A stretch of DNA of 64,000 bases from Patescibacteria group bacterium. Its GTDB lineage: Bacteria; Patescibacteriota; Microgenomatia; UBA10105; UBA927. The position numbers and the translations under genes are program-made. Positions 7,487-35,333 of the stretch are shown in pieces. Position 1 is the stretch's first letter, and each line of letters starts with the position of its first letter. Location of the stretch: contig JBMOPU010000012.1 of the NCBI GenBank assembly GCA_049322955.1, forward strand, positions 83,581 to 147,580. The letters run 5' to 3'. The notes under the pieces are model-generated. The model was not told where the DNA came from. It did no database searches and saw only the letters and a list, made by a program, of their open reading frames with translations.

Positions 7487-7491
7487 GTGAT

Positions 7492-8307: not shown

Positions 8308-8310
8308 CAC

Positions 8311-13446: not shown

Positions 13447-14715
13447 ATGCGGAAAATACACGCAACATACCGGCGCATCACCCAGGGCGTTTTCCTGAGG
13501 TTTTTTCTCCTGATACTTATCCTCTCGGCTCTTTTTGTCAATCTTGCAGTGAAGGTCAAAAGCGTTCCGTATGAGCTTGATGAGATCATGTACTTTAACG
13601 ATACGGAAGTGCTGGATGCATTTATCCGATTTGATTTTGTATCCCCCGTCTGGGACGAGCCCGCGGCTTTTATCCAACCGCCGATGTCAAAATACATATA
13701 TGGCATGTATCTTCATCTCCGTCACAACGACGTAGGGCAAGTTCGTGATGAAATCTTACAAAATAATAACCGATACTTTCTTGACCAAATTGACGTAGAA
13801 ACTATCTCCGGATCATCTTTGGAGCCGTATTTAATTTCAATGCGTCATGTCGCGTTATTCTTCGCATTTATCACACTGATCCTTTTTGGGTACATCATCT
13901 ATATGATCGTGCCGGACATACGGGTGACGATACTTCTGCTTCTGATCATCGTACAAAGCAGGCTGTTTTACACAACTATGCTCGTTGCAAAGCCCGATCC
14001 GATTTATCTGGCATTTTTACTTGCGGGCATCATTCTGTTTGAGCGGGGAATTGCACGAAAATCAATGCCCGCTCTTATGGGGTCGGCAATCTTAGGAGGG
14101 ATCAGTACGTCAACCATACTTACCGGAGCGCTCTTTTTTATGCTGATCCCGCCGCTTTTGATTGTTCATGGATTATTTGATCGCACGGCAAAGCTTCGGT
14201 TTTCCCTCGGCGCTTGTATACTCATGCTATATGCGGGGATGTGGACATGGTATATCGTGAATCCGTCTTTGTATAGAAACCCCGTCGCCAACACGGTAAA
14301 AAACATATCAATACGGCAGGAAGTGCTCTATTACCAACGGAAAATTCCGTTGAATCAGCCCGCAAAGATCGTTTCCTGGCACGATATGGGGGCATCGCTC
14401 TCCTGCGTATTTATCCGCCACAAGGAATCAGCTTGTGAAAACGGCGCTATTTCCCCCTGGCCGATTATAAACATAGCCCTGTTGCTCCTGGGAATGTACC
14501 ACATATTACGCAGAGTGCTCATCGATAGCGATCAGAAAGCGGCAACGGTGTTAACAAGCGCGCTGTTTATCATCAGTGTAGTGTGCGGATTTCTTCCGTT
14601 TAACTGGGCACGGTATTACCTTCCGGTATTTTTTATCTATTCGCTTATCAACGCATACGGCCTATGGTATCTATTACGATTTCTCCCCGGCTACCGGCCG
14701 CTTCGTGTCATATAA
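13447..14715 (+). CDS. Polytopic membrane protein, GT-C-like (ArnT/PMT-like) putative glycosyltransferase.
   Basis: 422 aa with many transmembrane segments. Acidic first-loop motifs (YELDEIMYF, VWDEPAAF) resemble GT-C DE/DD loops. Confidence 0.45.
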   Translation: MRKIHATYRRITQGVFLRFFLLILILSALFVNLAVKVKSVPYELDEIMYFNDTEVLDAFIRFDFVSPVWDEPAAFIQPPMSKYIYGMYLHLRHNDVGQVRDEILQNNNRYFLDQIDVETISGSSLEPYLISMRHVALFFAFITLILFGYIIYMIVPDIRVTILLLLIIVQSRLFYTTMLVAKPDPIYLAFLLAGIILFERGIARKSMPALMGSAILGGISTSTILTGALFFMLIPPLLIVHGLFDRTAKLRFSLGACILMLYAGMWTWYIVNPSLYRNPVANTVKNISIRQEVLYYQRKIPLNQPAKIVSWHDMGASLSCVFIRHKESACENGAISPWPIINIALLLLGMYHILRRVLIDSDQKAATVLTSALFIISVVCGFLPFNWARYYLPVFFIYSLINAYGLWYLLRFLPGYRPLRVI

Positions 14716-14755
14716 CCTAAAGGATGATAGAATACTTCCGTTTCCTCACAAGCGT

Positions 14756-15487
14756 ATGCACATCGGCATTATCGGCGGTACCGGTTTTGAAAATCATCAA
14801 TGGCTCGTCGGGAAGAAAACGAAAATTCAGAAGACGAAGGCCGGATTTCCTTCCTCTCCTCTTCTGACTGGAGTTATTCACGGACATCAGGTCGCCGTTA
14901 TATCACGCCACGGAAAAAATCATCAATATGCCCCCACACATGTTCCGTACGCCGCTAACATTCTCGCACTAAAATCATTAGGATGTACGCATATTCTTGC
15001 CACCACCGCGTGCGGGTCGCTTCGGAGGGCGATGAAACCAGGTGATATCGTTTTTGTTGATCAGATGATCGACATGACAAAACACCGGGATGACACCTTG
15101 TTTCATAGCCGGCCGACGCATACTGCTATGGCGGAACCCTTTGATGAAAAACTTCGGGCTATTTTGGTTCGAGCCGCCCGCTTACGTGGTATGCATTTTC
15201 ATTCAAGCGGCACGATTGTCACCATCGAAGGGCCCAGATTCTCTACCCGGGCAGAGTCCCGAATGTTCCGGATGCTCGGTGCCGACGTGATTAATATGAC
15301 CACGGCAACCGAGGCGGTTCTCGCAAGGGAAGCGGGACTCTCCTACCAGGCTATTGCTATGGTGACCGATTATGATTCTTGGGACAAACGAATTTCTCCC
15401 GTCACGGAAGAGGTTGTCTTTGATAGGATGAAGAAATCGACGCAGGCAATACAGGAGTTACTGCATTTGGCGATATCTCATATATAA
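14756..15487 (+). CDS. S-methyl-5'-thioadenosine / purine nucleoside phosphorylase (MTAP family).
   Basis: Has MHIGIIGGTGF...HILATTACGSLRRAMKPGDIVFVDQMIDMT...GPRFSTRAESRMFRMLGADVINMTTATEAVLAREAG, the PNP/MTAP family blocks. Confidence 0.8.
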   Translation: MHIGIIGGTGFENHQWLVGKKTKIQKTKAGFPSSPLLTGVIHGHQVAVISRHGKNHQYAPTHVPYAANILALKSLGCTHILATTACGSLRRAMKPGDIVFVDQMIDMTKHRDDTLFHSRPTHTAMAEPFDEKLRAILVRAARLRGMHFHSSGTIVTIEGPRFSTRAESRMFRMLGADVINMTTATEAVLAREAGLSYQAIAMVTDYDSWDKRISPVTEEVVFDRMKKSTQAIQELLHLAISHI

Positions 15488-15495
15488 TACCCTTG

Positions 15496-16239
15496 ATGAA
15501 ACGCACGTTTATCCATCAGGGTATGAGCGACTTAGGAGTACGCGACAGGCTAAGGATCTTGTTCCGTCACTATATCCTCCACCCGCTCTTCGGAGATATG
15601 TTCACGAATACGGAACTTATTCATGAACTTATCGAGTATTACGATGGGTATCAGTTGCAAAACGCAAATTCGAAAAAAGGGATACTGGGATTTGGGTTGA
15701 TTCATTACGCCCTGATAACGAATTTGCGTCCCCGTCGCTTGCTGTGTATCGGTTCGAAGAAGGGATTTGTTCCCGCAATCTGTGCCCTCGCCTGTAAGCA
15801 TAATGGGTTTGGGAAAGTGGATTTTGTCGATGCGGGTTATGGGGAGTCGGACGCAACAAATCAATGGGGAGGGGTGAGTCTTTGGCGTCGGATTAATCCG
15901 CGAAGCCATTTTTCGTTTTTGGGACTCGACGCGTTTATTCAACCGTTTATCATGACCACGAAGGAATTTATCAAACGAGAAAAGCATCGTTACCAGTATA
16001 TCCATGTTGACGGTGACCACTCATATGAAGGAGTAAAAAATGACGTGCTGGGGGTGTGGCCGCGTTTATCTAAAAACGGGTATTTGGTTCTTCATGATGT
16101 CACTGTTCGCCATATGAATAATCAGCCCGACTATGGCGTATGGAGACTATGGAATGAAATAAGCGGGGCAAATAAAATTTTAGTCGACCAATCGGCAGGA
16201 TTAGGAATTATCCAGAAGAAATCAAACAGATTGTTTTAA
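15496..16239 (+). CDS. Class I SAM-dependent methyltransferase (Methyltransf_24/CmcI/TylF-like), likely a sugar O-methyltransferase.
   Basis: Has LLCIGSKKGFVP...VDFVDAGYGE...IHVDGDHSYEGVKNDVLGVWPRLSKNGYLVLHD. Confidence 0.65.
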   Translation: MKRTFIHQGMSDLGVRDRLRILFRHYILHPLFGDMFTNTELIHELIEYYDGYQLQNANSKKGILGFGLIHYALITNLRPRRLLCIGSKKGFVPAICALACKHNGFGKVDFVDAGYGESDATNQWGGVSLWRRINPRSHFSFLGLDAFIQPFIMTTKEFIKREKHRYQYIHVDGDHSYEGVKNDVLGVWPRLSKNGYLVLHDVTVRHMNNQPDYGVWRLWNEISGANKILVDQSAGLGIIQKKSNRLF

Positions 16240-22876: not shown

Positions 22877-23490
22877 AACAAAAAAACTCATTTCTTATTG
22901 TGATCCTTGCCACTAAACGGATTGAAGATCACCCTAAGGTGTTGCAGGAACAGATGAGTGCGTTGGCAACAGTCGGGCGCATTGTCTATGTCTGTCGTTG
23001 TGAAACAAACTTTCTGGTCGCCGTTGCGAAATTTTTACGAAAACGGGTATCAGACAACTATGGAAAACCCGGGCGTTGCCCCGACGTCACTCGTCTCTAT
23101 GTGTATAGTCCGCTCCCCTTTCTCCGTTTTGCATTCGTGCGGCGGATACATACCTTGCTCTACGATTTTGTGGCAGTGTGGAGCACGCGATGGTGGTTGT
23201 TATCTGAAAAACCTCTCGCCCATGCGGTGTGGATGATGCATACGGATTTGTATAAATACCTACATGTATGGCAAAAAAGCATCCTGATTATCGATACCAT
23301 CGATCATGATAAAGATAAGGATAAACACGGAATATTTATGAAGCGGTATCGCACGACGGGAATTTTCATACATAAAAAGGGAGTGCCGACACTTGCGGTC
23401 GTGCCGTGGGGAGCAACACAACAAGAACGGATAAAAAAAACTATCGCAAAAATTACCGAAATGATGAATCTTTCAGTGTCTTCCCCGTGA
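22873..23490 (+). CDS. Hypothetical protein (possible stand-alone GT-B N-domain-like).
   Basis: 205 aa with no recognisable motif. It overlaps its neighbours by 4 nt upstream and 38 nt tail-to-tail downstream. Confidence 0.35.
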   Translation: MKQKNSFLIVILATKRIEDHPKVLQEQMSALATVGRIVYVCRCETNFLVAVAKFLRKRVSDNYGKPGRCPDVTRLYVYSPLPFLRFAFVRRIHTLLYDFVAVWSTRWWLLSEKPLAHAVWMMHTDLYKYLHVWQKSILIIDTIDHDKDKDKHGIFMKRYRTTGIFIHKKGVPTLAVVPWGATQQERIKKTIAKITEMMNLSVSSP

Positions 23491-24700
23491 TTGTGCGGTC
23501 AATCAGCGCGAGAAAATATGCCGTAGCAGAGGGTTTGTTGAATGTGGCGGCAACCTCCGTACAACGCTTACTCAGTTTCCTATACGAATGACTCGAAAGC
23601 CGCATCATCCATTGCATCTTTTTTGCAAAAACAAGCGGATCCGGTGAGGGAATAATAAGTCGCGGATCTACTTTTGTAAGAAGTTCAGGAATGGCTCCTT
23701 CATTGGAGCCTAACACGGGCCGTCCGTAGGTGAACGCTTCCAACGCGACATACCCGAACATTTCTAAATTAACCGAAGGAAACAACACACAGTCACTTGC
23801 CTGATACAACCGCGAAAGCAGATGTTTGGGAAGATGAGGAAGAAACACAAGATGATTTTCTAAATTGCGGGCACGAATCCAGGATAGCCATTTCTCTCGA
23901 TGGGCGTGGTCAGCATACCCGGAAAATACGATCGTATAATCCGGACTCGTAAGATACGGCAGTGCGGCAAATACCCGTTCGGGCTGTTTCCACGGTTCAA
24001 ATCGGGAGGGAAATAAAAAAACAAAGTCGTTTTGCGGAATACCAAAACGTTTCCGTACGCTTCTCTTAGTCTGCAGGTTCAGTCTCCTTTTTTGTGTTGG
24101 GGAAATAAACCCCGGAATAATACGGATGGGTTTTGTGACATGATAATACGTTTGTAAGAGACGCATGGCATACGTGCTATAGGTAAGAATAGTAGGAAAA
24201 GCAGACAGGCCTATCCAAGTAATCCAATAATAGAGCAATGATCTGAACCGGTTCAGAATCCCCGAGTCCATTGCAAAGTTCTTTTTTAGTTCTAAGTCCA
24301 ACGGACTGATGAAAAAAAACAGCCGTGGGATGCGTAACACCAAAAGGGGAAAAGACAGTGCGGCCGTTGCGATTGGGCCGACGCATAATACCAGCGAAAT
24401 CTTTTTTTGCGTGATAATCCGGAAAAAAAGCCTGAGGGTCTGAAGTACGATCCGTAGTTTATTTCCGGGACCGTGGTACGAGCGAAGCGGCATGTGATAG
24501 ATGCGGTCCGCATCCTGAAACCGTTTTCTGAATGTCGCATCGTGACGATGCGTGGTAACGGTGAGGATATGTACGTGATACCCGTTTTTTTTGAGGAGAG
24601 TGGATGTCTCGGCGACAAGCGTACTCATACCGCCGTATCCGAGCATCTCCGCCACCAAAAGCACCGTTTGTGCGGTGTGATGCTTCGGGTGGGGTTTCAT
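23453..24700 (-). CDS. GT4-family glycosyltransferase with an internal hydrophobic segment.
   Basis: Has EMFGYVALEAFTYGRPVLGSNEGAIPELL. I chose the start at the internal ATG (MKPHPKHH...) to avoid overlapping the HD gene. Confidence 0.7.
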   Translation of the reverse strand: MKPHPKHHTAQTVLLVAEMLGYGGMSTLVAETSTLLKKNGYHVHILTVTTHRHDATFRKRFQDADRIYHMPLRSYHGPGNKLRIVLQTLRLFFRIITQKKISLVLCVGPIATAALSFPLLVLRIPRLFFFISPLDLELKKNFAMDSGILNRFRSLLYYWITWIGLSAFPTILTYSTYAMRLLQTYYHVTKPIRIIPGFISPTQKRRLNLQTKRSVRKRFGIPQNDFVFLFPSRFEPWKQPERVFAALPYLTSPDYTIVFSGYADHAHREKWLSWIRARNLENHLVFLPHLPKHLLSRLYQASDCVLFPSVNLEMFGYVALEAFTYGRPVLGSNEGAIPELLTKVDPRLIIPSPDPLVFAKKMQWMMRLSSHSYRKLSKRCTEVAATFNKPSATAYFLALIDRTITGKTLKDSSFR

Positions 24701-24716
24701 GGGTATTCTGAAATCG

Positions 24717-25361
24717 CTATTTTGATGGATCGGCAAACTGCATAACCGCATGCCGTAACAATCTGCGTTTTGACGCCGCAAGCTTGGGCATACCTGCAAG
24801 CTGTGTCCACCATTCCGTACTCGCCACCGCTTCGGCATTTGCCGCGAGACGCCGGGATTGCGGGAGAGTAAGTTGTTTTTTGGAATATTTCAACCATTTC
24901 TTTGCTTCCGTATATCCCTGTTCGACAAGAATATTTTCCTGAAATAGCTGATCCAATATATCCGCATCTTTTACCACTTTTGCCGCAAGCGACTTTTGGG
25001 CAAGAAAGGTATGATAGTGCGTAAGAAAGATACTACGGATAGTTGGCGGCAACGGATGGATGATATCGGTAAAGGCGTCGGTTTCCGCCTTTGTTTGATA
25101 CCGCTTATGCACGAAATTGGCATCACCAACCCGTGATTCCGCAATATCATGAATGAGCGCCATGAGGCTTACCTCCTGCAAATTCGCTCCGACCTCTTCC
25201 GCAAGCAGTAAGGCGATCATTGTGACATTGTATGAGTGGTCGGCTATGGATCCCATGTCGACGTTGAATGTTTGGTAAGAACTTCTTCTGATACGCTGGA
25301 GTGAACGAATTTCATTGATAAAGTTCACAACGCCGTTATCTTTTTTGAATGCTTTTTTCAT
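24717..25361 (-). CDS. HD-domain phosphohydrolase (YfbR-like 5'-deoxynucleotidase family).
   Basis: Has ADHSYNVTMIALLLAEE...LIHDIAESRVGD (H...HD...D). It overlaps the 3' end of the upstream QueC-like gene. Confidence 0.7.
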   Translation of the reverse strand: MKKAFKKDNGVVNFINEIRSLQRIRRSSYQTFNVDMGSIADHSYNVTMIALLLAEEVGANLQEVSLMALIHDIAESRVGDANFVHKRYQTKAETDAFTDIIHPLPPTIRSIFLTHYHTFLAQKSLAAKVVKDADILDQLFQENILVEQGYTEAKKWLKYSKKQLTLPQSRRLAANAEAVASTEWWTQLAGMPKLAASKRRLLRHAVMQFADPSK

Positions 25362-26301
25362 ACGAGTGTTGCAGGGCAACGGTTATTCTTCTGGTGGCGT
25401 TGTGTATTTTACTTTGGACCATTCCCATCGGCAAGTCTGTCCAATAGACCGTGTGATCGCATATTCCCGCCCGTTCGTACGCCTCTTTTCTTGTCCGACA
25501 TCCGTCACATCTCCCGCAATGGTACACCCCTCCCCAGTAACAACTCCATGTTTTTTCAAGCGGCATGCCATAATGATTCGCCCATTGGATAAGCGTTTCT
25601 TTTTCCCAAAAATATCCGCACTCTCTTTCCAGCGCGAGTGAGGCGATCTGCCATGACGAATCGTTGGTAAGTACGATAGTATTCATGGTCACCGAACGAA
25701 GCGCGGTGAATGTTTCATACGCCATACCGACCCCGTCCTTGGCGATAAAACTGTTAAATACGGTACGTATCCTTACTCCCCGGGTTAACTCCAGGTATCG
25801 GGCATATTGGACCGCATACCCGTTCAATAGCGATGAGTACATCGGGATCCCGTGTCGTTGAAGCGTTGTAGTATTGAAAATAGCGTCCGCAACGTCCGTA
25901 ATTCTCCATCGGATTTCCCGTGGCGGTATCGGTGCATTGATGAGTATCGGCTGATGATACTGCGAAGGGTATTGCTTCTGGAAAAAATCGGTAAAAAAGT
26001 AAAACGATCGAAGCTCCTTCGCAACGCGTCGATGTCCTCTTTTTATATATAACGGGTAAATATGCAATCCGTATTTTCTCATAAGAATGTCGCTAGCGAC
26101 CGTGCTGTCCAGACCGCCGGAAGAGAGCATGATAACCGGCGTGTTGGGTCGGGGCATGCGGAATATATATCCGCGTGTTTTCAATAAAAACGATTCGATA
26201 CTTGCGACCGCCGGCATGTTTTCCAGCGGGCGTTTTTGTAAAAGCATTGTGATGGTATTTTTCTGTTTTCGGGGAAGGATATAAGCGGTCTGCTTCTTCA
26301 T
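25336..26301 (-). CDS. QueC/ExsB-family PP-loop ATP pyrophosphatase with an N-terminal extension. Either an N-acetyl-sugar amidotransferase (WbpG/PseA-like) or a 7-cyano-7-deazaguanine synthase homolog.
   Basis: Has VIMLSSGGLDSTV (SGGxDS) and a C-terminal CYWGGVYHCGRCDGCRTRK (Cx7CxxCxxC, a QueC-type Zn motif). 321 aa. Confidence 0.65.
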   Translation of the reverse strand: MKKQTAYILPRKQKNTITMLLQKRPLENMPAVASIESFLLKTRGYIFRMPRPNTPVIMLSSGGLDSTVASDILMRKYGLHIYPLYIKRGHRRVAKELRSFYFFTDFFQKQYPSQYHQPILINAPIPPREIRWRITDVADAIFNTTTLQRHGIPMYSSLLNGYAVQYARYLELTRGVRIRTVFNSFIAKDGVGMAYETFTALRSVTMNTIVLTNDSSWQIASLALERECGYFWEKETLIQWANHYGMPLEKTWSCYWGGVYHCGRCDGCRTRKEAYERAGICDHTVYWTDLPMGMVQSKIHNATRRITVALQHSYEKSIQKR

Positions 26302-26318: not shown

Positions 26319-27008
26319 TTACAGATGCGCGGTATGGATTTTTCCGTTTTTAAGCTCAAACACCCGTTCGCAATTTCGTCGAATATACTCAAGCCAGTGC
26401 GATGCTATGATAAATGTCTTGTTTTCTTTAATCAACTGCTTTAAGACGCGCTGGGATTTGCGGCGAAATTCGGCATCCCCTACTCCAAATCCCTCGTCGA
26501 GTATAAAAATATCGGGATTGGATTGTATTGCAACGGAGAATCCGAGACGCAACATCATCCCCTCGGAATAGGTATAAAGAGGAACATCGACAAACTGACC
26601 GATATCGGCAAATGCGATGATCTCGTTGAGTTTTTGATCGATCGTCCGTTTGGACATACCCAACAGCATGCCGTTCAGATAAATATTCTGAATACCCGAC
26701 AGTTCGGGATGGAAGCCTGCCTCTAGATCAATAAGCGATACGACTTTTCCATATCGTTTTACCGTTCCGCTAGTGGGAGTGGTAATCCCCGCAATTATTT
26801 TGAGCAGGGTTGTTTTTCCACTGCCGTTCGGCCCGATTATTCCTATTTTTTCCCCTCGCTTCACCGTCAAATTTATTTTTTGGAGTGCCCAGAATGTTTC
26901 GTGATCGTGTTTCACGAACTTTTCCACGAGCGTTGGCTTTTCATGATGGATTTCATATTTCTTGCTTACGTGATTTAACTCGATGGCAATATCGTATGTT
27001 GTGTTCAT
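26319..27008 (-). CDS. ABC transporter ATP-binding protein (Wzt/TagH-like polysaccharide exporter).
   Basis: Walker A GIIGPNGSGKTTLLKIIAG, signature LSGIQ... region, Walker B ILDEGF. Confidence 0.85.
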   Translation of the reverse strand: MNTTYDIAIELNHVSKKYEIHHEKPTLVEKFVKHDHETFWALQKINLTVKRGEKIGIIGPNGSGKTTLLKIIAGITTPTSGTVKRYGKVVSLIDLEAGFHPELSGIQNIYLNGMLLGMSKRTIDQKLNEIIAFADIGQFVDVPLYTYSEGMMLRLGFSVAIQSNPDIFILDEGFGVGDAEFRRKSQRVLKQLIKENKTFIIASHWLEYIRRNCERVFELKNGKIHTAHL

Positions 27009-27772
27009 AACCAGTCATCAAATGTTTTGCTTTCTTTTTCAAAGATCAGTATTCCCAAAAAGGCAACCCCAAGGATAACGCTGATGTTACTCACAAGCAT
27101 TGCGGGGCCCGGCGCGGGAGCGCCGATGAGCGCATGTTGAAACAACTGGACAATCGAGGTGAGGGGATTAATCCGCCAAAGCCACAATACTTCCTTGGGT
27201 AACTGGATAAAAGAGTAGACGATCGGTGTCGCGTAGAACCATACGATCAGGATAGCCTGAACAAAAAAATTAACGTCTCTGAATCGAACGTTGAGCGCCG
27301 ACGTCAAAAGCGAAATTCCGGAAGTAAATATGAGTAGTAACGCCAGGGCAATACCACTATACACGGGCGCAAGCGGTGTCATCGTGCCCAGCAAAAGTGT
27401 GGGAAGAAGAAAAATAAGAAACCCCGCGGTGAAATGGATAAAGTTTGAAACAACGATGGATAGAGGAATAATACCTCGCGGAAACGCTGACTTCTTTACG
27501 AGTGAACGTTCATACACAATCGAGGGAGTTGCCTTGGTTAACGAAGTTGAAAAAAAATTCCAGGTAAGCAGGCCGATATATAAATAATAGTAATAATGCG
27601 GAATCGGCTCCTGTACAAAGAGGGTAAAAATAAAACCGATCACCATCATTTGAAGCAACGGATTGATGATCAGCCAGAGAAAACCGAATGCGGTGTTTTT
27701 GTAGCGGGACTGCAATTCCTTTTGGGTCATTCCCCACAAAAGTTCAAAAAAATGCCGGGTATCCGTTGTCAT
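27005..27772 (-). CDS. ABC-2 type permease (Wzm/TagG-like).
   Basis: 255 aa with 6 transmembrane segments. It overlaps the ATPase gene by 4 nt, a typical ABC-2 permease arrangement. Confidence 0.8.
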   Translation of the reverse strand: MTTDTRHFFELLWGMTQKELQSRYKNTAFGFLWLIINPLLQMMVIGFIFTLFVQEPIPHYYYYLYIGLLTWNFFSTSLTKATPSIVYERSLVKKSAFPRGIIPLSIVVSNFIHFTAGFLIFLLPTLLLGTMTPLAPVYSGIALALLLIFTSGISLLTSALNVRFRDVNFFVQAILIVWFYATPIVYSFIQLPKEVLWLWRINPLTSIVQLFQHALIGAPAPGPAMLVSNISVILGVAFLGILIFEKESKTFDDWL

Positions 27773-27961
27773 GGGGAGTATTATAATAGACCATCTATCA
27801 AATATGATACAGTAAATTCTTCTTCAGTAACGTGCCATGAGTGAAACAGACCCGTGATGAGGGAAAAAGATGGCGCCAGATGCACAAAAAAATACTTTAT
27901 CACTGCGGGCACGGTATGTCATGCTGGCGCATGCCCTAAGGAAATTGGTATAGTATCGCAT

Positions 27962-28573
27962 ATGCGGATCATGTATTGGCTACATTATATTGCCATAGTC
28001 GCTCTCTTTATCCTGTCGTTGCCGTTTCAAGTCGGCATTGCGCTGCTCATCCTGTTTATTGACGGATCACCGGTAATTTTTTGTCAGCGACGGGTCGGGA
28101 AGGACGGGAAATCCTTCATGATGTATAAGTTCCGTACCATGGTGAACGGTGCCGAAAAAAAACAGCCCAAATATATACGCCTGAATGAATCGCAGGGACC
28201 CGCCTTCAAAATTCATGACGATCCCCGCTTCACGAAGCTGGGCAAGTTCTTAAGCCATACGGGGCTTGATGAATTGCCGCAACTTGTGAATGTGCTGGAG
28301 GGTTATATGACCCTCATCGGTCCCCGCCCGCTCCCCGTAGCTGAGGCAAAGAAGTTAAAAAAATGGATGAAAGCACGGGAAAAAATGCGCCCCGGCATCA
28401 TTTCCCCCGCCATACTCACGGGGAAGTATCATGAGAATTTTGATGCCTGGATGAAAAGTGATATATCATACGTGAACCAAAAAGACCCGTTTCGTGATGT
28501 GCGGCTCTTTTTCAAAAGTTTTCCGTTTTTGGCGAAATTATTTCTCCGAAGTATCCGCGAGAGTAAGTCTTGA
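27962..28573 (+). CDS. Bacterial sugar transferase, small monotopic phosphoglycosyl transferase (PglC/WbaP C-domain-like); initiating enzyme.
   Basis: Has LLILFIDGSPVIFCQRRVGKDGKSFMMYKFRTM...DELPQLVNVLEGYMTLIGPRPLP. The track ORF starts earlier at an alternative codon; the first ATG is at 27962. Confidence 0.85.
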   Translation: MRIMYWLHYIAIVALFILSLPFQVGIALLILFIDGSPVIFCQRRVGKDGKSFMMYKFRTMVNGAEKKQPKYIRLNESQGPAFKIHDDPRFTKLGKFLSHTGLDELPQLVNVLEGYMTLIGPRPLPVAEAKKLKKWMKAREKMRPGIISPAILTGKYHENFDAWMKSDISYVNQKDPFRDVRLFFKSFPFLAKLFLRSIRESKS

Positions 28574-28746: not shown

Positions 28747-30870
28747 ATGGTGGCTCCTGAGGCACTACATATACCGGAGAAAAGCATACACGAAGCGTTA
28801 ATAAACGACGCGAGACGCCCCAAGTTGGTCGAGACACTCCCCGATTGGATGCAACGAGATACCCACGTACGATTCGGTGACCATGACATTGAACTGGAAA
28901 CAAACAGACTCCCGCGCATCGAAGGCGTCATGGGGGTTGTTAACCTCCTGCGGAAAGGCCAAGCGGAACTGAACCGGCCCTCAGGAGCCGTTACGCACGA
29001 GACGGCACAAGACAAGGAAGCTGGTGTGTTGCTTATCAAAAGCATTCTTGAAATAGCCGGGCTTGCGGCGGGTAGTGCCGCTATGAAAAAGGGTCGGGGC
29101 AAAAACGCCCTGCTTTTTTTGGGAGGGCTTGGGCTATTTGCCGGAGGCGGCATCGGGCTCACGATGGATTTATCGGGCTGTGCCTCTGCGATAGCGACCG
29201 AAGTGCCCCCGGGCACGCCGACCGCGCTTCCTGCGACGGAAATGCCCCCACAAGTTACCGTAACGCCGCTCAGCAACGAGGTTGTGGTGGGAACGCCTTC
29301 TTCCGCACCCGAGACCCCCGCTCCCATCCAAGGGGCATCATATCCTACCGAGGTATCGGTTCTTGAATCGCCGCTTGTGTATAGTTACGGAGGCGAGGCG
29401 GGACGCCAAAACATGAACGAATATACCCGGCAATTATTTGACCGTTATGTTGCGGAAATGAGTCGCTCCGGGTTCCTTACGGGTACCACCGTTGACCAGC
29501 TCTATCGATCCTTTGACCAGGGATACGATTTTAAACTTTTCACTACGGATCAGGGGCTTACCTGGTTAGTGCAAAGCAAATCTGATGGGAGCTTCTTGGT
29601 GCCAAAAGATCTGGACGGACAAATTTTTCGTGATTTACAACTTCCGTATAATTACCTGTTTGACTCAGGAGTAGCCGTTGAGGTTGGGCTTGATAACTTT
29701 AATTTCCAACGGTTTCAGGCAAACAAAGTAGGGTTTGTCGGCGCATGGCCGGTGCTTGTCACGGTTGACGGACAAGGTGTTCCGGTGAGTTGGGTGAACA
29801 TGGAACAGGGTGGTGCCGCAACCCCGATTACGGTAGCCTCTACAGTAGAGGCACCTACCCATGCATCGACCGATGTCCCCGACTCCCGTGTCGCCCTTAC
29901 GGTGGGAGCCGAGACGTTTCGAGTAACCACCGACGTTCGGTATTCGGAGTCGATCACCGATGTCAACATCGATCCTGCAAAGGCACAAAAAATCGGTGAA
30001 GTATTGGTCTATACCGATGCCGCAGGACGACTACTCTGGAATGAGCACCTGCAGGCATGGGTGCCGGAGTTTGGAACCAGTATGGACTATAAAACTCCCG
30101 AAACCGCACCAGTAGTACCGTTTGATGCGTATTATGACGGATCGAAGCCTGATGCCAGTACGTATATACCAAGTTCAGCCGCTTTGAGTGATATGTTGTA
30201 TATAGCCGAACACCCAGACCTGATTTCTCCTGATGCGTCATATCCCTACTATAGAGTGGCACTCTTCGGCAATGATAAAGCGAGGATAGGCTACGAAATT
30301 GTTCTTACTGGACCAAATCAATATCTTATTAGTAACGAAAACAAGACGGAGGTAACAAACAAAAAGCCGTTACCGTTTAATTATTTTGGTGTTCAGCAAA
30401 CAAAAGATAAAGACGGCAACATAATTTACGTTATAAAAAAGGCTAACTGGAATCCGATGCCGACAAATGAGCGAAATATCCTTGTGACTAATATGGGATT
30501 TGATAAGTCTGCATATGATGAATGGTTTAAATATCCATTAATTATGAGATACATTGAAGCCGATTCCTCAGTGACTGGTGGTGAGCTTGTGCCTCTTTTT
30601 CTTTCACCTGACGGACAGTTTCAGGAAACGAATCCGAATCTTTTTTATCTTGAAACTCAGCCGGCGAATCCTCATGTGGCCGCACTTGTGAGTAAAGATC
30701 TGACTGATATTTTTAGTCAGGAGGTCCAGACCAGTATTGATCTCCTGTATCCGCAGATAAATAAGCCTTTTGACGAAAAAACGAACCCAGGAAGCTATCT
30801 CATAGGAGTCTTACCGTCTGGGTTAACAAATATGATTCACTATACAGGAGTCCAGACGTTTTATCCCTAA
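28747..30870 (+). CDS. Large cell-surface protein, no recognisable family. The internal ATG at 29083 gives a perfect lipoprotein signal peptide (MKKGRGKNALLFLGGLGLFAGGGIGLTMDLSGC). The C-terminal ~190 aa are compositionally distinct.
   Basis: One long ORF of 707 aa. Hydrophobic stretch plus lipobox L-S-G-C at residues 113-145. Pro/Thr-rich linker. The 3' 570 nt are conspicuously AT-rich compared with the rest of the gene. Confidence 0.6.
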   Translation: MVAPEALHIPEKSIHEALINDARRPKLVETLPDWMQRDTHVRFGDHDIELETNRLPRIEGVMGVVNLLRKGQAELNRPSGAVTHETAQDKEAGVLLIKSILEIAGLAAGSAAMKKGRGKNALLFLGGLGLFAGGGIGLTMDLSGCASAIATEVPPGTPTALPATEMPPQVTVTPLSNEVVVGTPSSAPETPAPIQGASYPTEVSVLESPLVYSYGGEAGRQNMNEYTRQLFDRYVAEMSRSGFLTGTTVDQLYRSFDQGYDFKLFTTDQGLTWLVQSKSDGSFLVPKDLDGQIFRDLQLPYNYLFDSGVAVEVGLDNFNFQRFQANKVGFVGAWPVLVTVDGQGVPVSWVNMEQGGAATPITVASTVEAPTHASTDVPDSRVALTVGAETFRVTTDVRYSESITDVNIDPAKAQKIGEVLVYTDAAGRLLWNEHLQAWVPEFGTSMDYKTPETAPVVPFDAYYDGSKPDASTYIPSSAALSDMLYIAEHPDLISPDASYPYYRVALFGNDKARIGYEIVLTGPNQYLISNENKTEVTNKKPLPFNYFGVQQTKDKDGNIIYVIKKANWNPMPTNERNILVTNMGFDKSAYDEWFKYPLIMRYIEADSSVTGGELVPLFLSPDGQFQETNPNLFYLETQPANPHVAALVSKDLTDIFSQEVQTSIDLLYPQINKPFDEKTNPGSYLIGVLPSGLTNMIHYTGVQTFYP

Positions 30871-30941
30871 AAGCATAAAGAGAGCCTCCCCTGCCCTTAG
30901 TCTAATTGCATCTTCGTTCGGCTTTTGTTACAGTTTTCTTA

Positions 30942-32552
30942 ATGAGGAAGTTATTGTTTTTTATCGTATTGCTTTTCCTCTTTGTGCCGTTCGCTTCTGT
31001 ATCCGCGCAATATGTCACCCCTACGCAGGGTATCACCCCCACCGCTTGTCAACCGAGAACTTGTGATCAGCCTCCACCCAGTAATTGTAGTACTCTTCCA
31101 AATACAACATGGGGATCATTCCCTGTCTGTAATCATGGTGCTGACGGGTGTGGAGCGGTGTGGAGTTGTACGCAGACAACGGGTTGTACGGACGATGCCT
31201 CTTGGTCAGATTGGTCAGGATGTGCACCGGGAATAGAAGGAGAAACGAGGTACTGTATTAACTCAGCCTGTTGTGGTAATGCCGCCGAAGCACGTCTTTG
31301 TGATCCCAGTCCGACGGGACCCGGAGGACCGGGAGGAAACCCAACTGATCCGCCCGGGGTACCAACGGCCACACCCAACACTCCGCAGATCGGTGATATT
31401 CAGGCTCGAGCCGTTCAAGTAGATCCCGCCGATACGTCGTGTGCCGCCATCCGGGCAATTCCCACGACCGACGGCGAAGTGAACGGCGCGGTGCATCAGT
31501 TCACTCCCTCATCCGCTAGCCAACCGGCCGCCCAAACACAAACAGGTGCAAATTACGTAACCTTTGCCAATGTTGCGGCAGGGACCTACACGATAGATCC
31601 CAGTCCCCCAAGCGCGGATTGGGCATACGTACGGGCTTGCTCCAGAAACCTTGACAATGGTACCAATGCCGAAGGACTTTCACGCAACCTGCCCAATGCC
31701 GCGGTGCTCCGATGGGATATCGGATACACTTTAGGAACCGCGTGGGTGCAAGCTCAGGGAGGTGACGTCTATAGTTCGGGAACCATCCGTTCCTATCTTC
31801 CGTCGGTGACGCCAAGAGTATTTATCACCGACGGGACGGGCGGCTATCCCGGCATCATGACGTACGGCACAAGCTTTGATTTTGACAGCGATCCGTATGA
31901 AACGGGAGCGACTATCGTATCTGCCGACAACTGGCAGGTCAACGCAAGCCGTGCGAGCGTCAATTACTATGACTATTTTTACCGACGGTTCGGTGCCCCG
32001 ACGACTCCGACAACCGCCGCTCCGTTTGATAACCTCACCGCGGTTACGCAACCCGCGTCAAACTGTACGGCATCGACCTGTACTCCCTACTATGTCGTCG
32101 GAGATATGACGACCAGCGGCGCCTGGTCGGTGGGTGCCGATGAGCGGATAGTAATTCTTGTGAACGGTAATTTAACTATCGGCGGACGAATCAATATTAC
32201 GGGTAACGGCTTTATCGCATTCATCGTCAACGGGACAATCACGGTTTCGGATACCGTGGGTACGACGGCCGCTTCCACAACCCCCGTTGTCGAGGGCATT
32301 TATATCGCGACAACCGAAACTCAAACCGGGAGCATCAATACGGGCGAAAGTTTAGCGGCGGGAACTGCCCGATTTGTCGGAAAGGGCATGTTCGTCTCAA
32401 ACGGCTTCCTTCTTCAACGGGATCTACAGGGTTTTGGCTCGGGAAATACCGCAAATGCCGCGGAGTTATTCGTATATAATCCTCAGCTCTTGCTTACGAT
32501 GCCCGACAGTATGAAGGAGTTATCCGTCACCTGGCAGGAGGTATCACCGTAA
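30942..32552 (+). CDS. Secreted protein with a Sec signal peptide, an N-terminal Cys-rich module, a Pro/Gly linker, and a beta-helix-like C-terminal domain; no recognisable family.
   Basis: MRKLLFFIVLLFLFVPFASVSA then QYV. There are 14 Cys in about 90 aa. Linker PSPTGPGGPGGNPTDPPGVPTATPNTPQ. Repetitive VILVNGNLTIGGRINITGNGFIAFIVNGTITVSD. Confidence 0.6.
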   Translation: MRKLLFFIVLLFLFVPFASVSAQYVTPTQGITPTACQPRTCDQPPPSNCSTLPNTTWGSFPVCNHGADGCGAVWSCTQTTGCTDDASWSDWSGCAPGIEGETRYCINSACCGNAAEARLCDPSPTGPGGPGGNPTDPPGVPTATPNTPQIGDIQARAVQVDPADTSCAAIRAIPTTDGEVNGAVHQFTPSSASQPAAQTQTGANYVTFANVAAGTYTIDPSPPSADWAYVRACSRNLDNGTNAEGLSRNLPNAAVLRWDIGYTLGTAWVQAQGGDVYSSGTIRSYLPSVTPRVFITDGTGGYPGIMTYGTSFDFDSDPYETGATIVSADNWQVNASRASVNYYDYFYRRFGAPTTPTTAAPFDNLTAVTQPASNCTASTCTPYYVVGDMTTSGAWSVGADERIVILVNGNLTIGGRINITGNGFIAFIVNGTITVSDTVGTTAASTTPVVEGIYIATTETQTGSINTGESLAAGTARFVGKGMFVSNGFLLQRDLQGFGSGNTANAAELFVYNPQLLLTMPDSMKELSVTWQEVSP

Positions 32553-32571: not shown

Positions 32572-33969
32572 ATGACCTTCGAACAGCTTCGGTTGAAGCA
32601 CCCACGACTCATTTATAAGCGATACAACGTAACCAAATCCGATGCGGCGATTACGATAGAACATGAATTTCTGCTTGAGCCTGATATACCGTTTCGCGCA
32701 TCCACTACCATTCCCCATACGGGTGAGTTTCACGAGGAGGCGTTTGCCCCCTATGCGTTCCATTTAGGGCTGATTGAAGCGGTAAGCTATTGGAAAACGG
32801 CATGCCCCCGTGAATTTGTAGTAGAAGCGGGATATCTTGACGCTACGCAACTGCGGTTTTGGTACGATCTTTTCATCCATGGGTTGGGCGAGTTTTTCTA
32901 TCGAAATGCCATAGACTTCACCGCTCCCGAATTTCTTACCATTCGTACTACGGGTGAAGCGTTGCCTCCGAGCATTCCGTTTTCCCCCGCAGATATCGCC
33001 TCAACGGATCTGGTACTCGTCGGCGGCGGCAAGGATACTGCAGTGACGTTGGGAATGTTAAAAAATAGCGATAGAACAATCCAAACCATGATTGTTAATC
33101 CGACTGACGCGGCACGAAAATCCGTTGCTATCGCCCACTTCTCCTCCCCTCTTATCGTGAGGCGGGTAATGGATCCGCAACTTATGATCTTAAATAAGTC
33201 GGGGTATTTAAACGGGCATACCCCATTTTCCGCCTATCTTGCATTTCTTGGTATAGCGGTTGCATTTCTCCATAGAAATACTTCGGTGATTGTCTCCAAC
33301 GAAAGAAGTGCAAACGAAGGAAACGTTGTCTATAAGGGAATGGAAATAAATCATCAATACTCCAAAAGTTTCCGCTTTGAAACGCTGTTTCGCCGGTATA
33401 TTGCGGATGTATTTCCCGCGGCGGCTAACTACTTTAGCATGCTTCGTCCGTTAAACGATATTCAGATCGGGTTACTCTTTGCAAGGCTTCCGGAGTTTTT
33501 TCCCACTATCAGGAGTTGCAACGCCGGAAGTAAAAAAGGTATTTGGTGCGGGAAGTGCTCCAAATGTGCCTTCACCTACCTTGTCCTTTCTCCGTTTATC
33601 GCCGAAGCGGATCTTCTTCGCATATTCGGGAGTGATTATTTTCATGATCCCGATATCATCCAATATGTCCGTGAGCTCGTCGGGTTAACCCCGGTGAAAC
33701 CCTTTGAATGTGTGGGCACCCGGGATGAGGCAAAACTCTCGTTGCTTCTTGCGATTTCCCGGTATAAAAAAGAATCACGGGAAATACCCGAGGGCTTGCT
33801 TACGATAAAAAGTGATCTCGGTCTTACCGAAGAAGATACCTTGTTTCTCAAGGAACGGGTATTTGATGCGTGGGGTGATACCTTTAATCTCCCGCCGGAG
33901 CATATGAGTCTGCTTCGACTTACTTGGGAGAGAGCGCGAGAAAACTACGAGAAAACCGCACAACCATGA
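32572..33969 (+). CDS. Hypothetical protein with a PP-loop-like motif and a Cys cluster. Candidate MurL-like UDP-MurNAc-L-Ala-L-Glu epimerase, based on synteny with murD.
   Basis: 465 aa with LVLVGGGKDTAV (an AANH/PP-loop-like variant) and CNAGSKKGIWCGKCSKC. Its stop overlaps the murD start as ATGA. Confidence 0.35.
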   Translation: MTFEQLRLKHPRLIYKRYNVTKSDAAITIEHEFLLEPDIPFRASTTIPHTGEFHEEAFAPYAFHLGLIEAVSYWKTACPREFVVEAGYLDATQLRFWYDLFIHGLGEFFYRNAIDFTAPEFLTIRTTGEALPPSIPFSPADIASTDLVLVGGGKDTAVTLGMLKNSDRTIQTMIVNPTDAARKSVAIAHFSSPLIVRRVMDPQLMILNKSGYLNGHTPFSAYLAFLGIAVAFLHRNTSVIVSNERSANEGNVVYKGMEINHQYSKSFRFETLFRRYIADVFPAAANYFSMLRPLNDIQIGLLFARLPEFFPTIRSCNAGSKKGIWCGKCSKCAFTYLVLSPFIAEADLLRIFGSDYFHDPDIIQYVRELVGLTPVKPFECVGTRDEAKLSLLLAISRYKKESREIPEGLLTIKSDLGLTEEDTLFLKERVFDAWGDTFNLPPEHMSLLRLTWERARENYEKTAQP

Positions 33970-35333
33970 ACGAAATACACGGCACATCAGCACTCATTGT
34001 CGGATTCGGCCGGGAAGGTAAAAGCGTGTTGGCATGGCTCAATACGCACTATCCGAACCTTCGTATCGGAGTTGCCGATCGGACATTTGCACCCGACCAT
34101 ATGTCAGGAAGCACAAAGGATGGGGTGACGGTGTATAACGGAGAAGGATACCTTTCGCATTTGGCTGAGTATGACACGGTTATTCGAAGCCCGGGCGTAT
34201 CCCCGTATCTTCCCGAGTTTATTGCATATAAGAAGGGACCCGGTCATCTGACGAGCGCAACTAATATTTTCTTTTCGAAAGTCAAAGGGATTACGGTGGG
34301 AATAACCGGTACCAAGGGGAAAAGTACCACGTCAAGTCTTATCGCACACCTTTTGAAATTTCACTATACCGATGTCCGCCTCGTCGGGAATATCGGTATC
34401 CCCATGTTGGATTCCCTCGATACCGCTACATCAAAAACGGTGTTTGTCATGGAGCTTTCGAGTCATCAGCTCTATGATTGCCGGTATAGCCCGCAGGTGG
34501 CGGTGATGTTGGGAATCGTATCAGAACATCTGGATTACTATCCGGATCTCATAAGCTATGCGCATGCGAAAGCAAATATCATAGCGCATCAGACAAGCGA
34601 TGGGTTGTTAATTTATAATCCGGCTCATACCATCCTTCGTACGCTTGCCGCCTCCCATCGGGGAAAGAAAATTACGTATGGTTTGGAGAAGGCCGACGAA
34701 CACCACGTCACGATAAAAGATGGGATAATCACCGTGAATCAAAAAGGACGATTGGTATCGGTGATACCGATGACACAAGTTCCCCTTCTCGGAAATCAGG
34801 AGAATATTCTCGCCGCCGTCTCCGCGGCTTCGGTACTGGGTGTATCACCCGAAGTGATTGCGCAGGCAATTACCCCGTTTCAATCACTTCCCCACCGTCT
34901 CGAATACGTCGGGGAATTTTTGGGCATTCGATTCTATAACGACTCGCTCGCAACGATTCCCCAAGCGACGATTCATGCGCTTTCCGCACTCGGTCCCGAT
35001 GCAAGCACCCTTATTGCCGGAGGCTACGATCGACATCTGGATTTTGCCGAACTCGGAGCATATCTGCGGAGTCATCCGATAAAAACGCTTATTCTTTTTC
35101 CCGACACCGGCGAAAAAATATGGGAGGCAATCGGCCAAGTACAGGCCGGGGCAATTACCAGATTTACCGTGAACACGATGAAAGAAGCGGTACAACTGGC
35201 ATATGACAACACTCCGCAAGGAGCAATTTGTCTGCTCTCACCGGGAAGTGCAAGCTATAATCTATTTCGTGATTATGCCGATCGGGGAGATCAGTTTAAG
35301 CACTGGGTAAGGGCTTTTGGTGGTGCGCAGTGA
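33966..35333 (+). CDS. murD: UDP-N-acetylmuramoyl-L-alanine--D/L-glutamate ligase (MurD family).
   Basis: Has LIVGFGREGKSV...GITGTKGKSTTSSLIAHLL (Mur ligase P-loop) and the C-terminal Mur ligase domain. Confidence 0.85.
   Translation: MNEIHGTSALIVGFGREGKSVLAWLNTHYPNLRIGVADRTFAPDHMSGSTKDGVTVYNGEGYLSHLAEYDTVIRSPGVSPYLPEFIAYKKGPGHLTSATNIFFSKVKGITVGITGTKGKSTTSSLIAHLLKFHYTDVRLVGNIGIPMLDSLDTATSKTVFVMELSSHQLYDCRYSPQVAVMLGIVSEHLDYYPDLISYAHAKANIIAHQTSDGLLIYNPAHTILRTLAASHRGKKITYGLEKADEHHVTIKDGIITVNQKGRLVSVIPMTQVPLLGNQENILAAVSAASVLGVSPEVIAQAITPFQSLPHRLEYVGEFLGIRFYNDSLATIPQATIHALSALGPDASTLIAGGYDRHLDFAELGAYLRSHPIKTLILFPDTGEKIWEAIGQVQAGAITRFTVNTMKEAVQLAYDNTPQGAICLLSPGSASYNLFRDYADRGDQFKHWVRAFGGAQ

Follow-up and report, generated by a model that had tools for sequence, protein, structure and literature searches.

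What does an enzyme of the QueC family do in an operon for glycan export? This question is raised by a stretch of 64,000 nucleotides (nt) from the genome of a Patescibacteria group bacterium (GenBank assembly GCA_049322955.1, contig JBMOPU010000012.1, positions 83,581 to 147,580), referred to in the following as the window and numbered from its first letter. Here, the gene for a QueC-like protein of 321 amino acids (aa) overlaps a gene for an HD-domain phosphohydrolase. An earlier note on this DNA had proposed an amidotransferase-hydrolase module acting on a nucleotide sugar, with kinship of the QueC-like protein to the N-acetyl-sugar amidotransferases WbpG, PseA and LfnA and with an acetamidino sugar as a possible product. 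Our analysis assigns the protein to a fairly large and so far undescribed branch of the QueC family in Patescibacteria. It is not the queuosine enzyme QueC, and its gene is translationally coupled to that for an HD nucleotide phosphohydrolase within a polymer-export operon. The enzyme probably attaches a nitrogen group to a precursor.

Both open reading frames (ORFs) of the pair are present on the minus strand and belong to the head-to-tail series wzm-wzt-QueC-like-HD-GT4 (GT4, glycosyltransferase family 4), whose five genes are separated by gaps or overlaps of at most 26 nt. The wzm gene overlaps wzt, 17 nt lie between the end of wzt and the start of the QueC-like gene, and ATG 24700 of the GT4 gene follows the HD stop by 16 nt. 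The longest HD ORF starts with TTG at 25379 and overlaps the QueC-like gene, the stop codon of which occupies positions 25336-25338, by 44 nt. We prefer ATG 25361, which gives a 26-nt overlap, because the called gene for a 91% identical protein of 214 aa (P0186) uses it. The best NCBIfam matches of the Wzt protein are Wzt/RfbE (179 bits) and TagH (170 bits), both under the equivalog cutoffs. As in Wzm/Wzt-type glycan export, a permease and ATPase pair (PF01061, PF00005) lies beside an initiating transferase (PF02397) and glycosyltransferases (GT4). The same gene order recurs in two other genomes (loci L020 and L048) at 51-63% protein identity and with the GT4 gene again following HD; in L048, the overlap of the QueC-like gene with HD amounts to 4 nt. 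Chance ORFs can be dismissed because homologues with E values down to 1e-203, an AlphaFold model with a mean predicted local distance difference test (pLDDT) score of 93 and the conserved order elsewhere all speak for real genes. The pairing of the two genes beside the Wzm/Wzt exporter, as described in the earlier note, is biologically meaningful.

The motifs reported for the 321-aa protein were found exactly as claimed, i.e., the PP-loop SGGLDST beginning at S61 and a Cx7CxxCxxC zinc motif formed by C254, C262, C265 and C268. The N-terminal extension also proved real. Compared with QueC, about 50 residues precede the PP-loop strand, they are kept in all 33 aligned relatives, and two helices (residues 14-22 and 29-43) are predicted for them. 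They include an invariant Glu27 in an F-E-D/N motif, which also occurs in family members fused to PqqD, and near-invariant Glu36 and Arg43. Q218 and a near-invariant R202 are further family-specific residues. Profile searches with Pfam and NCBIfam returned matches at E<=0.01 only to QueC, QatC and ThiI models. The Pfam QueC match is confined to residues 232-278 (54 bits), that to the QueC equivalog TIGR00364 to residues 232-271 (37 bits versus a cutoff of 150.3), and the QatC model NF041925 reaches 20.8 bits versus a cutoff of 280. No model for N-acetyl-sugar amidotransferases, TilS or NAD synthetase matched at E<=0.01. Profile-profile alignment with true QueC (hhalign) yielded a probability of 99.9 over residues 51-291. 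For the AlphaFold (AF2) model, with a mean pLDDT of 93.2, Foldseek identified Cap9 (9nto_B) and QueC (2pg3) as the closest solved structures, with other PP-loop enzymes distant; Cap9 9nto_B is also the best match by sequence in the Protein Data Bank (PDB), with local similarity only (E=3e-7).

What has been kept and what has been exchanged relative to QueC is informative. Residue numbers of QueC refer to the E. coli protein, and the motif positions match those in PMC13329287. Fold and motif order are those of QueC, and the retained residues comprise the SGGxDS PP-loop, E96 (QueC E42), D189 (D127), K234 (K165), the four zinc cysteines, with a first spacing of seven residues instead of the eight in QueC, and a C-terminal D-x-T-x-Y motif. 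Relative to the catalytic signature of QueC (YxQxHxxE, VPxRN and YPDC), Y35 is replaced (R88), as is R99 (Y155, with VPxRN turned into G-I-P-x-Y-S); the YPDC motif is lost, with M193 and Y195 opposite its Y131 and D133 at alignment positions that differ among family members. Experiments showed Y35, R99 and Y131 of E. coli QueC to be essential (PMC13329287), and in Cap9 and QueC the tyrosine stacks on the deazaguanine while the aspartate reads its Watson-Crick edge (PMC13279940). Judged from the aligned residues, the parts that bind ATP and adenylate an oxygen are intact, and the residues holding 7-carboxy-7-deazaguanine are lost. QueC and Cap9 both adenylate a carboxylate and then hand it on to ammonia or an amine (PMC13279940). 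With fold and motif order in common with QueC, the protein is therefore expected to carry out an ATP-dependent adenylation, after which a nitrogen nucleophile attacks.

The branch is well delimited. A search of 5.8 billion proteins yielded about 47 close relatives with E values between 1e-203 and 1e-24, and true QueC appears only after a gap, at 1e-13. An exhaustive HMMER search with the family profile returned 264 cluster representatives (50% identity) at E<=1e-30. Named sources of the close relatives are all Patescibacteria (Roizman-, Gottesman-, Collier-, Shapiro- and Pacebacteria). The label 'uncultured Gammaproteobacteria' is attached to a few metagenome-assembled genomes from third parties; of these, L006 (extended by L048) was looked at in detail and shares synteny with the window. 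In neighbour-joining trees the family forms a clade of its own, separate from true QueC. A 2026 survey of PF06508 distinguished ten clusters, namely QueC, QatC, LarE, PfkB-linked, WbpG-like, GMP synthase, Cap9 and three archaeal groups, and the family matches none of these. Members reside in glycan loci and never beside queD or queE. Window ORFs of at least 150 aa yielded no QueD, QueE, FolE or QueF, in agreement with the earlier note, and no TGT either (for 36-64 kb among the matches listed, 25 of 38 families); the same five were absent from 14 Pfam-annotated related loci. Public sources annotate these genes as '7-cyano-7-deazaguanine synthase', which is very probably wrong and would yield false queuosine-pathway calls in metabolic reconstructions of the organisms that carry them.

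Roles of the QueC family beyond preQ0 have been demonstrated only recently. Cap9 and QatC, which conjugate or are proposed to conjugate deazaguanine to protein N-termini, are QueC-family enzymes repurposed in this way and illustrate that the scaffold can use amines besides ammonia. Cap9 of type IV CBASS, nearest to our protein by sequence and Foldseek among solved structures, is a minimal protein of about 185 aa that keeps the QueC pocket and is encoded beside a CD-NTase. Here, in contrast, the protein has 321 aa, the pocket is replaced and a CD-NTase is lacking. QatC resembles our protein more in that terminal extensions have been added and the Tyr/Asp recognition pair has been replaced, from which its authors infer a different substrate (PMC13279940). 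However, the neighbours QatA, QatB and QatD are missing, the PADLOC QatC score is 14 bits, and the context is one of glycans, decarboxylases and hydrolases rather than of defence. An anti-phage system (Qat, CBASS or other) was rejected, as PADLOC gave only partial C-terminal matches and none for partner proteins. IMG/VR viral contigs contained no close family members, only canonical phage QueC with 21-28% identity. The branch would extend the chemistry of the QueC scaffold by members with their own N-terminal module, a remodelled pocket and an informative set of partners.

Nucleotide hydrolases are among these partners. The neighbourhoods of relatives were compared in 50 loci, dereplicated to 37 family loci; many lie on short contigs, and all counts refer to the available flanks. 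The identity of neighbour families was taken from scans of representatives against Pfam, NCBIfam and PHROGs and from precomputed Pfam tables. The HD protein of the window matches Pfam HD_3 with 82.6 bits (cutoff 22.5) and a YfbR-like model with 43 bits, and at 30.4 bits versus a cutoff of 122 for the YfbR equivalog NF003009 it is a member of the superfamily below YfbR level. The metal-ligand residues H48, H77-D78 and D145 are readable in its sequence. HDDC2, an oxetanocin-like protein and the HD-domain protein YGL101W are its nearest PDB sequences, and its PHROG match is 'dATP triphosphohydrolase' (1e-10). An HD gene adjoins the QueC-like gene in eight of the 37 loci, which fall into three clades and show both gene orders. 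Altogether, exactly one nucleotide hydrolase gene accompanies the QueC-like gene in 20 loci, at a distance of at most 300 nt in 19 of them: HD in eight, Ham1/RdgB in seven, Metallophos in four and MazG/dUTPase_2 in one. Two such genes never occurred together at any of the 37 loci. In P0258 (481 aa), the QueC-like core is naturally fused to a Ham1 domain, which finds the Ham1 proteins of the neighbour type with a phmmer E value of 1e-36. We read this one-hydrolase-only pattern as non-orthologous displacement of a single required step, in which a phosphoanhydride or phosphoester bond of a nucleotide-like molecule is hydrolysed. No other finding speaks as strongly for a functional unit formed by the pair in the window, or for something nucleotide-linked passing through it.

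Hydrolases are not the only recurrent neighbours, and the family's strongest associations are those with a decarboxylase and a Methyltransf_24 protein. Genes for decarboxylases dependent on pyridoxal 5'-phosphate (PLP) occur in 21 of the 37 loci; 19 of these enzymes are of group II, like histidine and serine decarboxylases and equidistant from both, and two are of the Orn/DAP/Arg (ornithine/diaminopimelate/arginine) type (L009, L044). Genes for Methyltransf_24 proteins were found in 18 loci, as were those for Wzt, which in seven cases lie within about 20 nt of the QueC-like gene. Counts for wzm (15 loci), for genes resembling thymidylate synthase (TS-like; nine loci, directly adjacent in six), for Bac_transf (eight, beside wzm) and for stand-alone PqqD (seven) are lower. 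In fewer loci we noted genes for tRNA-nucleotidyltransferase-like, HAD, kinase (AAA_17/dNK-like), cytidylyltransferase-like, PNP_UDP_1, phosphoribosyltransferase, NUDIX and Vut_1 proteins. Among otherwise unlabelled neighbours, radical-SAM genes (SAM, S-adenosylmethionine) were the commonest, some of them with SPASM or B12-binding domains, and annotated relatives sit among genes for glycosyltransferases, Wzy_C, WecG/TagA and Bac_transf. Besides the order in the window, L020 and L048, tight arrangements are Methyltransf_24-decarboxylase-QueC-like-HD (L008, L022) and TS-like-QueC-like-Ham1-kinase (L016, L040). In L045, Ham1-QueC-like is convergent with Methyltransf_24-decarboxylase-wzt-wzm, and in L001, L007, L018 and L021 PqqD-unknown-Metallophos-QueC-like is convergent with TPR-decarboxylase. 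These neighbourhood types are interleaved on the tree and thus look like excerpts of one larger pathway rather than functions specific to subfamilies. The earlier note had missed the decarboxylase, the Methyltransf_24 protein, the RiPP recognition element (RRE; RiPP, a peptide made by the ribosome and modified post-translationally) and the TS-like, kinase and phosphoribosyltransferase partners because none of them lies beside the pair in the window.

Some of these neighbours deserve a remark of their own. The TS-like proteins (204-275 aa; L009 3833-4570, L042 10963-11577, L016 636-1424), whose genes adjoin the QueC-like gene, are closest to the archaeal TIGR03283 type, below its cutoff, and possess the catalytic cysteine and the R-S-x-D motif. 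At the position of N177 in E. coli ThyA, one subgroup has Asn and the other Asp, which in dCMP hydroxymethylase is the cytosine-specific state. Where a Metallophos gene lies upstream of the QueC-like gene, it is always preceded by the gene for a conserved protein of 328 aa (L001 6137-7123; orthologues in L007, L018 and L021) without Pfam, NCBIfam, PHROG or PADLOC match. In the distant family locus L046, a gene for a class-I aminoacyl-tRNA-synthetase-like protein (9057-10004; weak tRNA-synt_1f match of 27.8 bits) overlaps the start of the QueC-like gene, and a citrate-synthase homologue (7235-8503) is encoded beside a decarboxylase.

The conserved link to a phosphohydrolase makes an amidating enzyme combined with a nucleotide hydrolase, both working on a nucleotide-linked substrate, the most economical reading. 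In this part the earlier proposal stands: the protein is not QueC, it is encoded in a glycan export operon and its tie to a hydrolase is conserved, even where Ham1, Metallophos or MazG is swapped in for HD, with Ham1 fused to the enzyme in P0258. The proposed kinship to WbpG does not. Specifically, we consider an AMP-forming amide or amidine ligase whose substrate is a nucleotide-linked precursor of the polymer that is exported, with HD cleaving the nucleotide handle, and assign to this reading a probability of about one in three. The QueC-like enzyme would adenylate a carboxyl group (or an amide carbonyl) on the nucleotide-linked precursor of the surface polymer exported by Wzm/Wzt. Ammonia or a small amine would then displace AMP, yielding an amide (or amidine). 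In most relatives, the amine would come from the adjacent PLP decarboxylase and be processed by the Methyltransf_24 enzyme. Finally, HD would cleave the nucleotide or phosphate handle or destroy a stray non-canonical nucleotide by-product, a task that Ham1, MazG or Metallophos would take over in other genomes. Such a branch points to an undescribed surface decoration or metabolite in Patescibacteria, the envelope and host-contact chemistry of which is almost wholly unexplored.

Two known systems resemble this scheme in their logic. A decarboxylase, an ATP-dependent amidoligase and a phosphatase act together on an ABC-exported polymer, the capsule of C. jejuni (PMC12409886). In its HS:2 glucuronamide module, the decarboxylase Cj1436 makes the amine, the ligase Cj1438C amidates the polymer carboxylate and the phosphohydrolase Cj1435 trims the product; homology aside, the likeness is one of analogy only. 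Amidation of a uronic acid in the manner of C. jejuni was itself rejected, as the annotated loci and the pooled neighbour scan showed no acid-sugar gene and Ham1 and MazG are unlike the phosphomonoesterase. Aminopropylation of microcin C involves a methyltransferase-fold enzyme, a PLP decarboxylase and a methylthioadenosine (MTA) nucleosidase (PMC10491745). The same three enzyme types (MccD, the PLP decarboxylase domain of MccE, and Mtn), which there decorate a peptide-nucleotide conjugate, are encoded around the QueC-like gene. The resemblance is again one of logic, and an MccB/ThiF-like enzyme is not among the neighbours. Methyltransf_24 was tried as an MccD homologue and rejected, since no solved structure (5FCD included) matched by sequence or profile; the best hit was 6g7d with E=0.26.

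Several observations weigh against the ligase reading set out above. The window contains no decarboxylase. Neither the annotated loci nor the most frequent families in the pooled neighbour scan included a gene for UDP-glucose dehydrogenase or for another obvious synthesis of uronic or carboxy sugars. The known activity of Ham1 and MazG is that of NTP pyrophosphatases, not of hydrolases for nucleotide sugars. The TS-like, kinase, phosphoribosyltransferase and tRNA-nucleotidyltransferase-like neighbours point to modification of a base or nucleotide, and PqqD/RRE domains, fused or adjacent in three of the five major clades, point to peptide substrates. Moreover, gene neighbourhood in compact genomes can mix unrelated functions. 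Decarboxylase and Methyltransf_24 genes, RRE fusions and the TS-like, kinase and phosphoribosyltransferase neighbours are compatible with a reaction directed at a nucleobase or a peptide.

In the nucleobase case, the enzyme would act like GMP synthase, TilS or QueC: the base of a nucleoside monophosphate would be adenylated at a carbonyl or carboxyl group and receive an amine, giving a non-canonical nucleotide. HD, Ham1 or MazG would supply the monophosphate from the triphosphate or clear a toxic modified triphosphate. We regard this as unlikely, though it is one of the two main rivals of the ligase reading, the other being a peptide-directed reaction. It would account for hydrolases that belong to classic 'house-cleaning' NTP pyrophosphatase families, one of them fused to the enzyme, for the dATP triphosphohydrolase match of the HD protein in the window and for the recurrence of kinase, phosphoribosyltransferase, PNP_UDP_1, NUDIX, cytidylyltransferase-like and tRNA-nucleotidyltransferase-like genes. 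A nucleobase acid is the substrate of QueC and Cap9, the nearest relatives, and the TS-like proteins of nine loci, with their catalytic residues and the Asp of one subgroup, would fit as well. The TS-like gene could, however, be the cell's own thymidylate synthase, and the window has neither such a gene nor one for the kinase or the phosphoribosyltransferase. The position of the QueC-like gene between wzt and a glycosyltransferase gene, and of Wzt in nearly half of the loci, stays unexplained, and there is no DNA or RNA transglycosylase or polymerase nearby, no close viral member and no match to a defence system.

A peptide substrate is plausible for part of the family. A C-terminal PqqD/RRE domain, alignable with stand-alone PqqD proteins, extends 38 of the 150 best family representatives to a length of 390-465 aa; the Pfam PqqD domain is precomputed on P0270. 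The fused members form one block in the leaf order of the neighbour-joining tree, placed among other family members, and in two other clades stand-alone PqqD genes are found near members. Fusions with S24-like peptidase domains involve the family member P0205, an NTP_transf_5 protein (L001) and the ABC ATPase (L044), and an S24-like peptidase is encoded downstream in L049. YcaO together with nitroreductase, HINT and NTP_transf_5 genes recur as neighbours, NTP_transf_5 being known also from some lasso-peptide clusters. RRE-bearing members thus recall the lasso cyclase system, in which a PP-loop adenylating enzyme, PqqD/RRE and a peptidase domain likewise co-occur. In contrast to that system, the PP-loop enzyme is of the QueC and not of the AsnB type, the peptidase is S24-like, no precursor peptide was identified and the copy in the window has no RRE. 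For the window, a RiPP-type ligase, joining a carboxylate to a peptide or activating a peptide carboxylate, would have to be an RRE-less derivative that acts on an envelope peptide or protein. The RRE fusions in a quarter of the representatives, PqqD genes in seven loci, the peptidase domains, the YcaO/nitroreductase and radical-SAM/SPASM neighbours and the protein N-termini targeted by Cap9 and QatC lend this some appeal. A hidden Markov model built from fused and stand-alone PqqD found no PqqD-like ORF at E<=0.01 in the window, in HD-type loci or in Wzt-adjacent loci. There was no convincing precursor peptide beside RRE-type relatives, and the operon in the window consists of export, glycosyltransferase and hydrolase genes only. 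A peptide-directed enzyme in the window is distinctly unlikely.

A broader proposal would draw nucleobases and peptides together. The family may represent a new class of QueC-fold conjugating enzymes in Patescibacteria that join a nucleotide- or nucleobase-type acid to decarboxylase-derived amines or, in a quarter of the family, to an RRE-bound peptide, with the pyrophosphatase partner protecting the cell from a non-canonical nucleotide. The outcome would be a nucleobase-amine or nucleobase-peptide decoration not seen before, on or exported with the surface polymer of these episymbiotic bacteria. We regard this, too, as unlikely.

An acetamidino sugar, made by a WbpG/PseA/LfnA-like amidotransferase with free ammonia replacing the HisH/HisF-like partner, is one possibility among several and would be a special case of the amide or amidine ligase reading; as the identity of the enzyme it is improbable. 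WbpG, PseA and LfnA work with HisH/HisF-like partners, whereas no glutaminase or cyclase gene is present in the glycan cluster of the window, as the earlier note had seen. The operon context, a PP-loop chemistry compatible with amidine formation and a cluster whose DegT aminotransferase, 4,6-dehydratase and nucleotidyltransferase could make an N-acetylated amino sugar would suit such an enzyme, and members of the WbpG group (cluster 5, subcluster 2 of PF06508) share with our protein the PP-loop, the location in surface-polysaccharide clusters and the replacement of oxygen by nitrogen on a sugar substituent. In that group, however, the motif order is reversed relative to QueC according to the 2026 survey, and our protein has the QueC order. 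WbpG-type identity was rejected on the lack of any profile match at the threshold given above. The earlier note erred on kinship because the protein is QueC- and Cap9-like, and the associations with decarboxylase, Methyltransf_24 and RRE would be left without explanation. Finally, true QueC function in preQ0 synthesis, or a variant of it that salvages 7-deazaguanines taken up from a host, is very unlikely for a protein that is about 100 aa longer than QueC, falls far short of the equivalog cutoff, forms its own clade, has no pathway partner among the window ORFs and annotated related loci described above and has exchanged the equivalents of Y35, R99 and Y131/D133, despite the public annotation, the zinc and D-x-T-x-Y motifs in common with true QueC, a Vut_1/YhhQ-family transporter gene at no more than 2.3 kb in three loci of one clade and the precedent of QatC, which illustrates that an altered pocket alone does not exclude deazaguanine.

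Table 1 Positions of the genes and motifs discussed, numbered from the first letter of the window.
Feature	Position	Strand	Basis or remark
QueC-family PP-loop ATP pyrophosphatase, 321 aa, Patescibacteria-specific branch	25336..26301	-	ORF, profile and structure matches
Family-specific N-terminal extension, residues 1 to ~52	26146..26301	-	Alignment A1; no QueC counterpart in hhalign
PP-loop S61-G-G-L-D-S-T67	26101..26121	-	Sequence; S61, G62, G63, D65 invariant in 33 relatives
QueC-type zinc motif C254-x7-C262-x2-C265-x2-C268	25498..25542	-	Four Cys invariant, aligned with QueC C188/C197/C200/C203
HD_3/YfbR-HDDC2-type metal-dependent nucleotide phosphohydrolase, 214 aa from ATG 25361	24717..25361	-	Pfam HD_3
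Wzt/TagH-type ABC exporter ATPase, short form without C-terminal binding domain	26319..27008	-	PF00005
Wzm-type ABC-2 permease	27005..27772	-	PF01061 63.5 bits; galactan_ABC_perm 71.6 bits
GT4 glycosyltransferase, final operon gene, start taken as ATG 24700	23453..24700	-	Glycos_transf_1 and Glyco_transf_4
Bac_transf, divergent initiating polyprenyl-phosphate sugar-phosphate transferase	27854..28573	+	PF02397 162 bits
Methyltransf_24 protein	15493..16239	+	PF13578; 49% identical to L002 copy
PNP_UDP_1 nucleoside phosphorylase/nucleosidase, directly upstream of Methyltransf_24	14705..15487	+	PF01048 154.6 bits
Radical-SAM/SPASM enzyme	11146-12159	-	
DUF4330 protein, beside Wzy_C	7492-8307	+	
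707-aa protein	28747-30870	+	No Pfam match
548-aa protein	30906-32552	+	No Pfam match
MurL-like protein	32572-33969	+	NF041275 226 bits vs cutoff 700
MurD-type Mur ligase	33924-35333	+	Overlaps MurL-like gene

The left half of the window (1-28.5 kb) is a single large envelope-glycan cluster, and the right half (36-64 kb) is housekeeping (25 of 38 families among the matches listed). In addition to the export operon, the cluster encodes a DegT aminotransferase, glycosyltransferases of families 2 (GT2) and 4, Wzy_C, a Wzx-type flippase, a radical-SAM/SPASM enzyme, PNP_UDP_1, Methyltransf_24, a 4,6-dehydratase/epimerase, a sugar nucleotidyltransferase, a GLF-like flavoenzyme, GT-C-like membrane proteins and a GDSL esterase. 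Its Methyltransf_24 protein, encoded 9 kb from the QueC-like gene, is the orthologue of the methyltransferase that accompanies the family (mean column identity of 43% in the family alignment A6). The PNP_UDP_1/Methyltransf_24 pair also exists in L048, and in L011 and L029 a PNP_UDP_1 gene is located about 1 kb from the QueC-like gene, beside HD. The PNP_UDP_1 protein of the window may serve as a nucleosidase for MTA or S-adenosylhomocysteine (SAH) from a SAM-using enzyme, as Mtn does for MccD. A 422-aa ORF beside this PNP_UDP_1/Methyltransf_24 pair was considered as a hidden decarboxylase and rejected, as it encodes a polytopic membrane protein without PDB or Pfam match.

Between the glycan operon and murL lie the genes for the 707-aa and 548-aa proteins, the latter rich in Cys, Thr and Pro and with a hydrophobic N-terminal segment; both are conserved in L006/L048 and are therefore probably surface proteins. 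MurL is a UDP-MurNAc-L-Ala-L-Glu epimerase, and the overlapping genes for the MurL-like protein and the MurD-type ligase form the MurD2/MurL pair that is known from Xanthomonadales and occurs here in a genome of Patescibacteria. The pair is conserved in L048, with MurL_N and MurL_epimerase_C domains. The DUF4330 gene found beside Wzy_C in the window recurs in the glycan loci L012, L008, L042, L043, L044 and L045.

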